A stretch of 64,000 nt of DNA. Source: Felis catus. Lineage: Eukaryota. The notes beneath the pieces are model-generated. The model was given only the letters and a program-made list of their open reading frames with translations. It searched no databases and was not told the origin of the DNA. Each line of letters opens with the position of its first letter. Positions within the stretch are counted from its first letter, which is position 1. The stretch is taken from the NCBI RefSeq assembly GCF_018350175.1, contig NC_058368.1:17424001-17488000 (forward strand). The letters run 5' to 3'. The translations under genes were made by a program, and so were the position numbers. Of this stretch, positions 1,494-40,732 are shown piece after piece.

Positions 1494-1576
1494 CTCTTGT
1501 GGAGGAATGTTGCAGGTAACAGTTCGGAGATCAACTTTGACAAACACATCGATGCAGGGCAGGACCAGGATCAAGC
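1494..1576 (-). CDS. STOML3: STOML3 exon 4 (GLILVLPCIDVFVKVDLRTVTCNIPPQE)
   Basis: AG/GT boundaries, 83 nt. SPFH motifs LPCID and VDLRT; phases consistent. Confidence 0.96.
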
Positions 1577-1685
1577 CTAAGAAAATGAAAATATAGCTTA
1601 AAATCTTACCTTATGGTAAAGAACTGCAACAAATCATATCCCAGTTATGTGATACATTATTTTTAAGGATTTCTGTTTTAGTTTA

Positions 1686-2036
1686 TTTATGTATTTTGAG
1701 AGGGAGACAGAGAGAGAGAGGGAAAGAGCATGCTTGTGATCAGGGGAGGGTAAGCGAGAGGGAGAGAGATTCCCAAGAGGCTCTGCATTGTCAGCACTGA
1801 GCCTGACCTGGGGCTCCAGCTCGTGAACTGCGAGATCATGACCATGAGATCATGACCTGAGCCGAAATCAAGAGTTGGACGTTTAACCGATTAAGCCACC
1901 CGGGTGCCCTACAAGTGTCTTGACCCAAATACACCTCTAGGACAATGCTAGGCAGTGTGTTGGTTGGTTAGAGGGCCTCCTGATACGGCTAATATCCTTT
2001 ACATGTAACTTAATCCGCACAACTAGTTATTATTGT
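1686..2036 (-). repeat. Inverted duplicate of 10305-10655 (SINE plus ~125 bp of its 5' flank)
   Basis: Hand alignment: 351 bp, 9 mismatches, no gaps. Confidence 0.95.
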
Positions 2037-2037
2037 T

Positions 2038-2219
2038 AGGTTAGAGAGGGAGGGAACCAAACCATAAGAGACTCTTAAAAACTGAGAATAAACTGAGGGT
2101 TGATAGGGGATGGGAAGGAGGGGAAAGTGGATGATGGGCATTGAGGAGGGCACCTATTGGGATGAGCACTGGGTGTTGTATGGAAACCAATGTGACAATA
2201 AATTTCATATAAAAAAAAA
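2038..2219 (+). mobile_element. 5'-truncated felid/carnivore L1 3' end with poly-A
   Basis: Carnivore L1 3'UTR motif GATGAGCACTGGGTGTTGTATGGAAACCAA...AATAAATTTCATAT followed by an A tail. Confidence 0.85.
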
Positions 2220-3717
2220 GAATTGGCAAAACTTATTATTAATACTTGCATTATTAAAGCATAATGGACAACTTACAAAAGTGAAGAGGTTTTCCATTAG
2301 CAATTTGGCTTGTTTCCCTCTAGTTCTTATGGCTTTCTGAGGTAACTCATTAGCCCCAGAGACACGTATGACGAGAGTAGTTATCCTGGGACATCTGGTG
2401 GTGAAATCTTCTGGGAAAACTCATTTAAGAGAGATACAGTTTTCTCTAGAGTCCTCCAAGTTATCCAACTTTACCCTGCTTATACATTTGGCCGCACCAA
2501 ATGCAACATAACCAACAAGGGGTCAACCTTGGTCTGATACACCTGAGTTGGATGAGTCTAACACTTCTATTTGGACAAACTCATGAGACCATCCATCATA
2601 AATAATTCTTGCATTCTTTCTCTTAGGTCCTTTACAGAGTTACACAAGTAGGATTATACTACTTGAAATGACCAACTGTCTTTAGCAAGCTTCTGCTTTT
2701 GAAATTTCTTATATTTTTTTATGCAACAGGTATCTGAGTGCCTACCATGGTGCATTGTCAAGTGCAGAGCACTTGCAGTATCACGGTGGATAGGAGAGTT
2801 CCTGCCCCCCAGAGGGGTTATAGTCCAGCTGGACAGAGAACGTGTTTACTCACATACATCATAACAAGGAGAAGGAAACAAATGTTATTAGAGAGGTATT
2901 GCAGATAACCCGTCTTTTTCATGTATCCTCTAGGATGCTATTTTTGGTGACCTCTTTTTTCAAAATGTTAGAATTTATCCTATGAAATTGTCATGTTTGA
3001 GAGTCAAAAACAAATATTAGCCACTTCATATAGTTCAACTACATGTAGACCAAGAGAAGTTACGAGAATTAAATCAATATCTAACTTCTAGAGTTTTAGT
3101 ACCTCAGACCTTCTCATGCCCCTTCTCCCAAACCCCATCCTTTTACAACATGAATTTAGAACACTCTTCATTGTACGAGAAAAGATGAAAAGAAATACTA
3201 CCTTTGGCCAAAGGAGTTGTACAATGGCTTCCAGCTCTATATTTCTATTAATCTACTGCCAGAAGAGGAAATTGCCTTTTACTTTTCCATTAGCTCTTTT
3301 CGAAGACTGAGAATCAAAAACCAGCTCCTGGAATATTCTTCCTGAGTAATTTAATCATCTACCTTGGCCATTTACTCCCTCCCCTCATTCTTCTGTCACT
3401 CCTTTAGTGGTCTCGGTAATAAGTGACATCCAGCCAACGTAACAGAGCCACTGTTTGCTCAGGTTCATTGAATCTCTCGGAGGGAAATGTTAAGAGACAG
3501 AACCAGATTTCCAAACTCTCAAACTAATGGTTTAGTGGTCATTCATATTAACTTGCATAACAGAACCACATCCTTCAATTATACAGAGAGGCAAGGGTTC
3601 CAGCTTCCTGTGATTTTTTTTTTCTTCTCAGTAGAAGGTGCCGGGAAAAGTTTTGGTGGCAATAGTCATAGTATTAGGTGCCCCTGATCCTTGTCAGGGG
3701 CACCCACAGTGTCCTAC

Positions 3718-3790
3718 CTGGCCCTCTGGCTTTGTCAGCTTGGATGCGTCCCAGTCGGAATACAACAGCACGTTCATACTCCTTAATGAT
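3718..3790 (-). CDS. STOML3: STOML3 exon 3 (IIKEYERAVVFRLGRIQADKARGP-G)
   Basis: AG/GT boundaries, 73 nt. EYERAVVFRLGR is the start of the SPFH/band-7 domain. Preceded by a 79-bp intron. Confidence 0.96.
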
Positions 3791-3869
3791 CTAAGAGATT
3801 AAGGGAGAGCATTTAGTCTTAATGGTTCATCAGCTCATACAGAGTCCAATTTATTTCCCAGGGTATTAC

Positions 3870-3973
3870 CTTCAAGCACATCCATATGGAGATGGGGAAG
3901 GTAATGATCATCAACAGGACAGAAAGGGAGAACAGGATCCAGCCACAGACACCAAGCCGTTTACTGCTGATGC
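3870..3973 (-). CDS. STOML3: STOML3 exon 2 (GISSKRLGVCGWILFSLSVLLMIITFPISIWMCLK), stomatin hydrophobic hairpin
   Basis: AG/GT boundaries, 104 nt. Typical stomatin-family membrane segment containing FP. Confidence 0.95.
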
Positions 3974-10042: not shown

Positions 10043-10430
10043 ACCAGAGGATATAAGGTCAGGCTAGTATTGAGGATGGAAAACTCACTGCTTACTCTGC
10101 ATTCTCAGAGAGAGGACAGACAGAATGGGAAACCTTCAGCAAAGCCAGCCTGTGGACAGATGGACACAGTGCCCGGCCCCGATGAGCAGTGGAGGCCCTG
10201 AGTCATTCACCACACATTCTAATTGAGACGCCTTCACGTGAAAGTTGGATGACATCCTACTCACCACGCAAGCCACTTAAGTCTTAGTTTCCTCCTCTGT
10301 TAACACAATAATAACTAGTTGCGCGGATTAGGTTACATGTAAAGGATATTAGCCGTATCAGGAGGCCCTCTAACCAACCAACACGCTGCCTAGCATTGTC
10401 CTAGAGGTGTATTTGGGTCAAGACACTTGT

Positions 10431-10672
10431 AGGGCACCTGGGTGGCTTAATTGGTTAAAAGTCCAACTCTTGATTTCGGCTCAGGTCATGATCTCATGGT
10501 CATGATCTTGCTGTTCATGAGCTGGAGCCCCAGGTCAGGCTCAGTGCTGACAATGCAGAGCCTCTTGGGAATCTCTCTCCCTCTCGCTTACCCTCCCCTG
10601 ATCACAAGCATGCTCTTTCCCTCTCTCTCTCTGTCTCCCTCTCAAAATACATAAACTTAAAAAAAAAAAAAA
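10431..10672 (+). mobile_element. Carnivore SINE with an internal 14-bp duplication; donor of the inverted copy
   Basis: SINE head and tail; AAGACACT on both flanks (TSD remnant). Confidence 0.9.
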
Positions 10673-10819
10673 GACACTCTTAACATTTCCATCAGATTGA
10701 CTAAACATTAAACAGAGTTTTATAGATTCTTGGCCCCTAGAATCTCTGTTTTCTTAGAGCATTTTCTTTAGAAACACTTATGGTAAGTTCTTTCTCTGCC
10801 CCTTCAAGACATAAATCTT

Positions 10820-11063
10820 CTTTTTTTTTTTTTTTTATGTTTGTATGTTTGTTTGTTTGCTTGTTTTGAGAGAGAGAGATCAGTGGAGGGACAGAGAGAC
10901 AGGGAGACAGAGAATCCGGAGCAGGCTCTGTGCTGACAGCACAGAGCTTGACACGGGGCTTGAACCCACAAGCCCCCTGTGAGATCATGACCTAAGCCCA
11001 GATCATGACCTGAGCCGAAATCAAGAGTCTGACACTTAACCAACTGAGCCAACCAGGCACCCC
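10820..11063 (-). mobile_element. Carnivore SINE
   Basis: TSD AAGACATAAATCTT; sits inside an LTR-like stretch (~10700-11445). Confidence 0.9.
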
Positions 11064-15412: not shown

Positions 15413-15698
15413 CCCTCCCCCGTTCATGCTCTGTCTCTCTCTGTCCCAAAAAAATAAATAAACGTTGAAAAAAAAAAAGGGGGGGGGGCGCCTGGGTGGC
15501 GCAGTCGGTTAAGCGTCCGACTTCAGCCAGGTCACAATCTCGCGGTCCGTGAGTTTGAGCCCCGCGTCGGGCTCTGGGCTGATGGCTCGGAGCCTGGAGC
15601 CTGTTTCCGATTCTGTGTCTCCCTCTCTCTCTGCCCCTCCCCCGTTCATGCTCTGTCTCTCTCTGTCCCCCAAAAAATAAATAAACGTTGAAAAAAAA
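15413..15698 (+). mobile_element. Young SINEC_Fc: truncated 3' unit followed by a full-length unit
   Basis: Single TSD AGAAGTTGTG at 15403-15412 and 15699-15708. Confidence 0.9.
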
Positions 15699-16484: not shown

Positions 16485-16954
16485 ATATAATGCAAGCAAA
16501 ATGCTTCATAATACCGACGTGCCGTTCAAGGTAGTAGCGCTTATGGCCTAAGTTTTTATTTTCCTCAACTTTCCTCCATGTACCAAACATGATGCAGCTC
16601 ACATCAACTTTTCTTTTTAATCACAGCATCACCAGCTGATAGTTGAAAACGGATACATTTCAGCCTGGGGTCTTTGCTATGTAATGCAAAAAAAGAAAAA
16701 CAAAGAATGTAAAGACAAACACAAATTCTAGCTAACATTGAAGAAAAGAGCAGATGATAGACTGCAGTTTGAGAAGAAAAAACAAAGCCACAAAAAGCAA
16801 TGAATCCAAAATCCTGGGCTCCAACTGGAATTGACGCCAGTCCCGATATGTATCAATCCCCTTCATGGGTAACCCTGTAACTCTCACAAACGCCACGGCT
16901 CTCGCTCTGCTTAACGTACAAAAAACAAGCTTAGGGCAGAAAAGAGGGACTTAC

Positions 16955-17006
16955 CCACTAAATTCTCTTTATCCAGCTTCTCGGGGGAAGATGCCCCAGG
17001 ATCCAT
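16955..17006 (-). CDS. STOML3: Stomatin-like protein 3, coding exon 1 (MDPGASSPEKLDKENLV-G)
   Basis: ATG at 17004-17006 in gagATGG context, GT donor at 16953-16954, 52 nt (phase 1). Peptide resembles the recalled STOML3 N-terminus and joins exon 2 in frame. Confidence 0.9.
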
Positions 17007-29003: not shown

Positions 29004-30189
29004 TCAAACTGTAACCCAAGAGAAATAGCAAAATGTCTGTAACATTTAACAAACACAAAGAAAACCAGTGACAGGTGTAAGGGGCTATTCTGGCACCCAC
29101 GATGCTTGACTCTACGACCCTGATCTGCACTGCGGAGCCTCCGTTAGAGCTAGCTGTCTTCCATCTAGACTCTGCTCAGAAGAGCCCTCCGATGCACACG
29201 GAGAAAGCCTTGAGAAATTAGCAAATTCTCTTTTCATATTTTCCCAATTTTTAAAAATTAAAAATTTATTTTGTGGTTAGTGTTGGTGTACTGACTTTAC
29301 CTTTCATTCTTTCAAACCACTTACCTAGAGTAATAACAAGTCATTGCCCCTCTTAGGAGCTTTTGGGACATCACTTTCCTTGTAGGCCTTCCAGGATTCA
29401 TGCCTATTTCTCCAGTATTATGGCCACTCGGTGAGTTGAACTTGATATTCCAGTTTATAACCTATACAGCTTTTTCTCCCAAGCATTTTCTCATACTGCC
29501 TCCTCTCCTCTACGCAATCTCAACCTCTAATATTTGCTTTGTCCTAGGAGCTCCCTTAGGGGCAAAAGCCGTATCTAATTCATCTTTAGAGCCTTAGCAC
29601 CTGGCGCTGTGCATGGCATCTAATAAATGTTTGCCACACTAGATATATCACCATTACCTCAACTATAGTTACCAGACCCATCCAAGGACTTACTCTGAAG
29701 AACTGTACTATAGTTGGCTCTCACATTTTTATTCTGATAAACTCTACGAATAATTACTGTAAGTATTTTGGGGGATGATCTGTGCTTTCTCCCTGAATCA
29801 ATTTAGTGACAATGTTAGCCTTTGACGATCTTGTTAGTGTCAAGTGGAAAGCATGACTTAGGTTGCTGAAGTCCTAATGACAACTATCTTCTGCTGCCAC
29901 GCTCGTATCGAAGTCTGTTTCAGTTATAGGCAGAGAATGTTCCTTTTGCAGTGATAATCAACTGAAAGATATTTTCATGGGCTAAAATTCAAGTTTCTAA
30001 GTTTATGCATAATAAAGACTCTTACATAAAAAGGTTGACATGGTCAATGAAGTAATGTACTATACGAATCATGGTGGGGAAGGGACCATAGGAAAAGAAT
30101 GGAAGAAAATAACATACACATAATCCATTCGTACTAAGAGACGGCCAAAAGATGCTATATTGGGCTGAACAAATTTACAGTAGTTTCAA

Positions 30190-30408
30190 TTTTTTTTTTT
30201 TTGAACGTTTTTTATTTATTTTTGGGACAGAGAGAGACAGAGCATGAACGGGGGAGGGGCAGAGAGAGAGGGAGACACAGAATCGGAAACAGGCTCCAGG
30301 CTCGGAGCCATCAGCCCAGAGCCTGACGTGGGGCTCGAACTCACGGACCGCGAGATCGTGACCTGGCTGAAGTCGGACGCTTAACCGACTGCGCCACCCA
30401 GGCGCCCC
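30190..30408 (-). mobile_element. Young SINEC_Fc
   Basis: Perfect TSD TACAGTAGTTTCAA; CpGs largely intact. Confidence 0.93.

Positions 30409-40363: not shown

Positions 40364-40732
<369 letters not shown>

Follow-up and report, generated by a model that had tools for sequence, protein, structure and literature searches.

A truncated L1 3' end joined to an inverted copy of STOML3 intron 1 sequence within STOML3 intron 3, tentatively explained by one DNA-templated L1 integration

The window analyzed here, a 64,000-nt stretch of genomic DNA spanning G000:C1:17424001-17488000, contains at its left edge a Band_7 exon on the minus strand, the translation of which is 99% identical to proteins named stomatin-like protein 3 in their sources. 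Judged by these names, the gene is STOML3, which acts in touch sensation. Using tblastn with three stomatin-like protein 3 sequences, we placed coding exon 4 at about 1494..1576, coding exons 2 and 3 at about 3716..3971 (approximate limits), and coding exon 1, with the start codon region, at 16953..17006, all on the minus strand. The exon map and the source names bore out the original prediction that the gene is STOML3 and that a donor sequence in intron 1 has a copy in intron 3. The copy forms part of a composite insert that ends about 96 nt upstream of the splice acceptor of exon 4. Given a minus-strand gene whose introns 1 and 3 hold the donor and the copy, respectively, the plus strand reads, in agreement with the prediction, as a piece in pre-mRNA sense, an L1 in sense orientation, and an A tail. 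In other mammals, some annotations given by the sources (proteins P0019, P0025, and P0032) fuse PROSER1 with the STOML3 Band_7 domain; these fusions are probably read-through models of neighboring genes.

A repeat search of the window identified an inverted pair with arms at 1670-2036 and 10305-10671, which are 367 nt long, 96% complementary, and spaced 8268 nt apart. Gapped local alignment reproduced the predicted core of this pair; positions 1686-2036 are the reverse complement of 10305-10655 in an ungapped block of 351 columns with nine mismatches. Leftward of 1686, the alignment degrades into T-rich sequence. This degenerate left end of the copied segment (1672..1685, plus strand), a low-complexity stretch of uncertain alignment, is a shortened counterpart of the complement of the donor SINE A-run and carries a TTTA insertion. 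Within the block, the donor SINE at 10432-10655 reappears in antisense, as its reverse complement, at 1686..1909 on the plus strand; the 14-bp internal duplication that both share lies at 1844-1871. The remainder, 1910..2036 on the plus strand, reproduces the 127 nt of non-SINE sequence that flank the donor SINE (10305-10431, reverse-complemented).

The donor locus in STOML3 intron 1 (10305..10678, plus strand) consists of the flank at 10305-10431, the SINE at about 10428-10658, and an A-run at 10659-10672. The SINE is old and in sense orientation, and it has its own 8-bp target-site duplication at 10420-10427 and 10671-10678; AAGACACT occurs at 10420 and again at 10671, and its complement occurs only once in the copy, at 1914 (1914-1921). 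Since AAGACACT is found on both sides of the 10.4-kb SINE and on one side in the copy, the 10.4-kb locus is the original and the 1.7-kb locus is the copy, which is the direction that had been proposed. A second SINE, at 11000-11062, is inverted relative to 10432-10494 at a distance of 505 nt and is 86% complementary to it over 63 nt; pairing of this second SINE with the donor SINE is conceivable in the pre-mRNA. Young SINE copies that are 94-95% alike are present in the window in both orientations, at 15469-15677, 40497-40705, and 30187-30408.

The nine mismatches are located at positions 1823, 1829, 1832, 1881, 1889, 1902, 1956, 2010, and 2019 of the copy. Transitions at CpG sites account for six of them, the number that had been estimated, and two of the six, at 1823 and 1902, are CpG gains in the copy, the donor having the SINE family state (25 of 27 and 26 of 27 other copies, respectively). 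At 1832, 1881, and 1889, the donor appears more likely to be the lineage that changed. Both lineages have thus accumulated changes, the copy about five and the donor about four. At the neutral mutation rates of mammals, the pairwise divergence of 2.6% suggests, as a rough estimate, that the duplication is a few to about thirteen million years old.

SINEs and L1 tails are plentiful and frequently adjacent, and young SINEs inside the window reach 94-95% identity, as might be expected if the composite were nothing special, i.e., the product of SINE family likeness, chance adjacency, or misassembly. A search of the 2.43-Gb genome (71 contigs) with the 126-nt non-SINE flank argued otherwise, as both of its two candidates were the copy itself and the donor; the genome-wide family of SINE-plus-flank units that would have undermined the prediction did not appear. 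The SINE parts of the copy and the donor are 97% alike, whereas the 38 other genome copies scored (40 of 7119 candidates were scored) are 73-81% alike. We fetched 28 SINE loci, one of which (L048) was left out for want of a BLAST hit at E 1e-15, and the 14-bp duplication was absent from all 27 other copies that were aligned. The 351-nt likeness of 97%, flank included, is accordingly not ordinary SINE similarity, as the original prediction had maintained. Public sequencing runs also contain the composite. In 20 of the 24 runs listed, representing 13 studies, 0.94-0.97 of the words sampled from 1100-2900 were present; the remaining four are unindexed raw-read runs. Nearly all of the positive runs bear one organism label, with one bearing a second label (0.95 share) and two unlabelled, and one run is possibly the source of the assembly. 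The occurrence of the words in 20 runs and 13 studies indicates that the composite is not an artefact of a single assembly. We rejected family likeness, chance adjacency, and misassembly on these four grounds (flank uniqueness, public runs, family identity, and the private duplication) as extremely improbable. An apparent resemblance of the flank to an ancient MIR-type repeat found no confirmation in a genome search with 10170-10431, which gave the two copies only.

On its right side, the copy adjoins a truncated L1 3' end with a poly-A tail, as predicted. The L1 3' end extends over 171 nt on the plus strand, from 2040 (give or take 3) to 2210, and is 92-96% identical to 29 other copies in the genome; it is followed by an A9 tail at 2211..2219 on the same strand. 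The 29 copies align rightwards from 2037-2047, and none extends leftward. The flanks of the composite gave 0 L1 hits, compared with 34 for the fragment. The junction bases TAG (2037..2039, plus strand) are of uncertain origin; since AG precedes GTTAG in 4 of the 29 other copies, only the T is perhaps untemplated. In the L1 3' UTR, an internal A-run and a G-rich tract immediately precede the point at which the fragment begins. Upstream of GTTAGAGAGGG, 28 of the 29 copies have the G-rich tract followed by the A-run. Upstream of the breakpoint, 28 of the 29 copies likewise go on as L1, and the other one, an L1 3' end designated L015 (G000:C13:128670293-128673460), is truncated at the identical point. 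The point 3' of the internal A-run may be a hot spot for 5' truncation. Twin priming from one L1 RNA was rejected because no L1 similarity was found left of 2037. L1 5' transduction was rejected because the L1 part, at about 171-176 nt, is not full-length and because the donor is non-L1 save for a homeology of 31 nt (see below).

Measured against the column majority of the 29 copies, the fragment differs at 7 of its 171 positions, and the individual copies differ at 2-10. Five of its seven variants are shared by 5-9 other copies, so that the number of private changes lies between 2 and 7. Compared with about 5 of 351 in the lineage of the copy, these 2-7 departures in 171 nt give Fisher P values of 0.067 to 1.0. 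The L1 departures appear compatible with the age of the duplication, although the upper bound (P 0.067) leans toward an older L1. A 41-nt stretch holding the combination of L1 variants has one other match in the genome within two mismatches. Six of the seven departures are G>A, a change that also makes up 69 of the 163 departures in the 29 L1 3' UTR copies (L004-L032; L1 sense strand). The G>A bias is family-wide in a G-rich stretch and not particular to the fragment in the window. APOBEC-type editing of the L1 cDNA was rejected as a special feature in view of the same count of 69/163 in the other copies and of the sharing of the variants, each of which occurs in 1-9 copies (binomial P 0.026).

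The whole 546-bp insert (1672-2217) is surrounded by a 7-bp repeat with one mismatch. Its left copy, AAGGATT (1665..1671, plus strand), is preceded by TTTTT, and its right copy, AAGAATT (2218..2224, plus strand), overlaps the A tail; TTTTT and AAGGATT together constitute a partial L1 endonuclease-type site, TT|AA. The chance of a 7-mer with no more than one mismatch was about 0.09 for a 36-nt zone in a test that was anchored on the right flank; a loose test gave 0.44. The two 7-mers are a weak candidate for the target-site duplication of the whole composite. The original prediction had reported no clear target-site duplication; it missed this candidate, which is short and imperfect. No repeat was found abutting the L1 alone, the best match being 8 nt with one mismatch, off the borders and within chance.

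Homeology is seen at the left junction as well, between the target flank and the part of the donor flank on the far side of the T-run (P about 0.01, for a comparison chosen post hoc). The copied piece is bracketed by a 10-nt direct repeat with one mismatch at 1656-1665 and 2029-2038 (ATTATTTTTA and ATTATTGTTA), a length that is reached in about 1.6% of random zone pairs. The junction TAG+G resembles the target TAAGG; this likeness hints at more than one template switch.

The junction between the copy and the L1 part revealed a further homeology. The donor sequence beyond the breakpoint (10274..10304, minus strand), referred to below as the landing pad, shows a homeology of about 74% with the 31 nt that open the L1 fragment, and the BLAST alignment of the donor with the copy runs 29 nt beyond the breakpoint. 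The anchored score at the breakpoint was 12, which none of 5000 random 31-mers equaled, and in a semi-global test a fraction of 0.0016 of 5000 random 40-mers reached the observed score. When about 128,000 positions on both strands were scanned, 10304 on the minus strand shared the top score with one plus-strand site and was the sole top-scoring position on the minus strand of the window. Many SINE-tail sites scored 10-11 against the 12 of the landing pad, a modest margin. Such a match is expected if a 3' end of L1 sequence, complementary to the L1 start, annealed at this site and was then elongated on the donor's minus strand. This homeology is new evidence linking the L1 part to the copy. It implies, as far as sequence can speak, that both parts belong to one molecular act and not to two unrelated insertions, and it would show how the partner site was chosen.

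We infer that the L1 part and the inverted copy arrived together. A single L1-coupled event, all templates counted (DNA, pre-mRNA, or a second RNA), is probable. In favor of such an event are the composite flanks devoid of L1 and the absence of a repeat abutting the L1 alone, the 7-bp repeat after TTTTT around the composite (a weak point), an L1 breakpoint at a natural truncation point (L015, 1 of 29 copies), the homeology at the left junction with its post hoc P of about 0.01, and the compatible ages of the L1 (2-7/171) and the copy (about 5/351). Against it stand the shortness and imperfection of the 7-bp repeat and the lean of 7/171 versus 5/351 departures toward an older L1 (Fisher P 0.067).

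The last two points, together with the homeology at both junctions, would suit a history of two events, in which a 5'-truncated L1 fragment was inserted first and FoSTeS/MMBIR or SDSA later copied 370 nt in inverted orientation from a source 8 kb away, using the L1 start as homeology and possibly with loss of sequence. Small inverted duplications without L1 are indeed common, and 277 events with a median of 284 bp are described in PMC12350158, as far as its available text extends. However, the new segment meets the L1 fragment precisely at its 5' end, to within 3 nt, and the sequence leftward of the segment holds no remnant of L1. Without a deletion, this exact placement would be a rare coincidence; with a deletion, the 7-bp repeat with its TTTTT|AA site and the breakpoint at a natural truncation point would both have to be due to chance. 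We consider two separate events unlikely.

Among the single-event readings, we tentatively favor the DNA-templated form of one L1 integration for the whole 546-bp insert, a reading to which we give somewhat less than an even chance. Target-primed reverse transcription would have started at TT|AAGG and covered the 3'-terminal 171-176 nt of an L1 RNA, coming to a halt at a natural stalling point just short of the A-run and the G-rich tract inside the L1 3' UTR. The freed 3' end of the cDNA would then have annealed to the homeologous 31-nt site 8.3 kb off in cis, a site that belongs to the window's minus strand and lies, relative to the insertion, toward the poly-A end. The template would be single-stranded DNA, exposed either by 5' resection of the same broken end, in which case the cDNA would have folded back onto its own strand, or by replication. 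Extension would have proceeded for about 370 nt via the flank and the old SINE up to the SINE A/T run, whereupon the cDNA would have been released and would have rejoined the upstream end of the target by a second short homeology. Fold-back of the cDNA onto its own resected end would account for three features, namely the inverted orientation of the donor, its position on the poly-A side, and the use of the strand that 5' resection would leave single-stranded; the side and orientation favor DNA over RNA by a factor of about two only. No third locus supplied a ready-made chimera, as the genome contains the flank just twice, in the donor and in the copy. Two further points count against this reading. 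The landing-pad score is barely above those of the SINE-tail sites, and a homeology of about 74% over 31 nt compares poorly with the homology of at least 25 bp, sensitive to mismatches that suppress recombination, that was required in the reporter assays reported in the available text of PMC13526784.

The original prediction proposed one L1 integration that switched template onto the nascent intron of the host gene or onto DNA 8 kb away. The integration with a template switch has gained the junction homeology and the weak 7-bp repeat, and the nascent intron now ranks below DNA in cis. In the RNA form of the event, the L1 integration switched to nascent STOML3 pre-mRNA at intron 1. The copied piece is in pre-mRNA sense beside the L1 sense, as template switching requires; the donor and target lie within one transcription unit; and the junction homeology suits annealing to RNA as well as to DNA. 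The sense orientation, however, has a 1-in-2 chance, the side of the donor is not predicted, and the copied piece has no natural RNA end. The copy also has two private A>G changes on the pre-mRNA-sense strand (1823 and 1902), and these, with the inverted SINE 505 nt from the donor, make RNA editing before copying conceivable. Two A>G among about five changes fall short of significance, and each of the two is preceded by C, an unfavorable neighbor for ADAR. We therefore rejected A-to-I editing of an RNA template, as two copy-private A>G changes are too few. A fixed insertion must originate in the germ line or early embryo, and STOML3 expression is restricted to sensory and olfactory neurons; a pre-mRNA template would need transcription of the STOML3 intron in the germ line. 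The RNA partners of L1 chimeras known from the available text of 10.1101/2025.02.02.635956 are abundant and mostly 5'-complete, or are spliced first exons. A pre-mRNA template is a minority possibility, on a par with the two separate events considered above.

The left end of the copy is relevant to a further RNA-based explanation, a form of twin priming with a second RNA, in which the upstream end of the target served as primer on the A-run of a STOML3-antisense transcript through the donor SINE, and the homeology then allowed this second cDNA to anneal with that of the L1. The copy does end at the SINE A/T run beside the left copy of the 7-bp repeat, as a poly-A-primed cDNA would, and annealed products of opposite orientation are described in the portions of PMC11702581 and 10.1101/2025.02.02.635956 that are available. 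This explanation nevertheless requires a hypothetical STOML3-antisense transcript starting at least 127 nt upstream of the SINE head, since a Pol III transcript of the SINE would exclude the flank, and the left end is TCTGTTTT and not a clean T-run. We regard it as decidedly improbable.

If the favored DNA-templated integration is correct, the composite is a fixed, nucleotide-resolved germ-line example of an L1 intermediate that primed on nearby DNA and took in a local copy; such L1 events have so far been described mainly in cultured cells and tumours. The geometry is testable genome-wide, as an inverted donor on the poly-A side can separate DNA fold-back from template switching on RNA. As a single locus, the composite is illustrative and not surprising, a neat but fairly ordinary case, since similar accidents have been described before.

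Within one pre-mRNA, STOML3 exons 2-3 lie between the two arms of the inverted pair, for which the predicted duplex has 344 pairs and -704 kcal/mol. The pair is a candidate driver of back-splicing or A-to-I editing, and a strong intragenic inverted repeat around two STOML3 exons may alter RNA processing. The most far-reaching account would join both aspects. In it, a germ-line L1 cDNA would have folded back onto its resected flank and primed at a 31-nt sequence, similar by chance, 8 kb away; about 370 nt would have been copied before the end returned to its target, and the resulting pair could drive circular RNA formation or editing. We consider this full account a long shot; if it were true, the 367-nt, 97% complementary pair could drive STOML3 circular RNA or heavy A-to-I editing in the lineage.

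Several known kinds of insertion and duplication resemble the composite in part. Twin priming was reportedly described by Ostertag and Kazazian in 2001. As in twin priming, two head-to-head segments with tails outward lie inside one pair of flanking repeats, here the weak 7-bp candidate; in twin priming, however, both segments come from the same L1 RNA, whereas the inverted part here is non-L1.

Chimeric retrocopies of the U6/L1 type are said to have been reported by Buzdin (2002-2003) and Gilbert (2005). The composite shares with the U6/L1 chimeras described in the available text of 10.1101/2025.02.02.635956 and PMC4476161 a foreign 5' part and a 5'-truncated L1 in the same orientation, a single poly-A, and a repeat around the whole, which is a weak candidate here. 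Both parts of the composite read in one transcriptional sense and have one 3' poly-A. In those chimeras, as far as the same sources describe them, the 5' part is an abundant small RNA or a spliced first exon; it is usually a discrete cellular RNA with a complete 5' end. In contrast, the 5' part here is an internal intron piece of the gene that was hit (10305 to about 10676, internal to intron 1) without a natural RNA 5' end; the copied piece starts in the SINE tail and ends within the flank.

The small inverted duplications of replicative origin in PMC12350158, which in its available text mostly show microhomology of 1-15 bp, are similarly local and inverted, with short junction homology and a median length of 284 bp compared with 367 nt here. 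What sets the composite apart from these duplications is that one border of the copied segment coincides with the start of an L1 tail and that L1 sequence provides the homology.

The closest likeness is to complex L1 insertions. The available text of PMC11702581 describes self-annealing of a cDNA 3' end after resection of 6271 bp and lists templated insertions and inverted duplications at L1 insertion sites, and that of PMC13526784 reports that homology promotes the recombination of L1 cDNA with resected DNA. As in these insertions, an L1 tail with poly-A is joined to an inverted segment of cis DNA, the cDNA end is homologous to its partner, and the distance is in the kilobase range (6271 bp there and 8.3 kb here). 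The cases in these texts are somatic ones, observed in cell culture or cancer, with fold-back chromosomes or translocations as their outcome. In the present case, by contrast, synthesis would have ended after about 370 nt with the end returning to its own target, leaving a small, clean insertion present in all 20 indexed runs. With an L1 3' end and A9, a nearby segment copied in inverted orientation, and homology at the junction, the composite belongs among the complex L1 insertions with a local templated inverted copy, a known kind.
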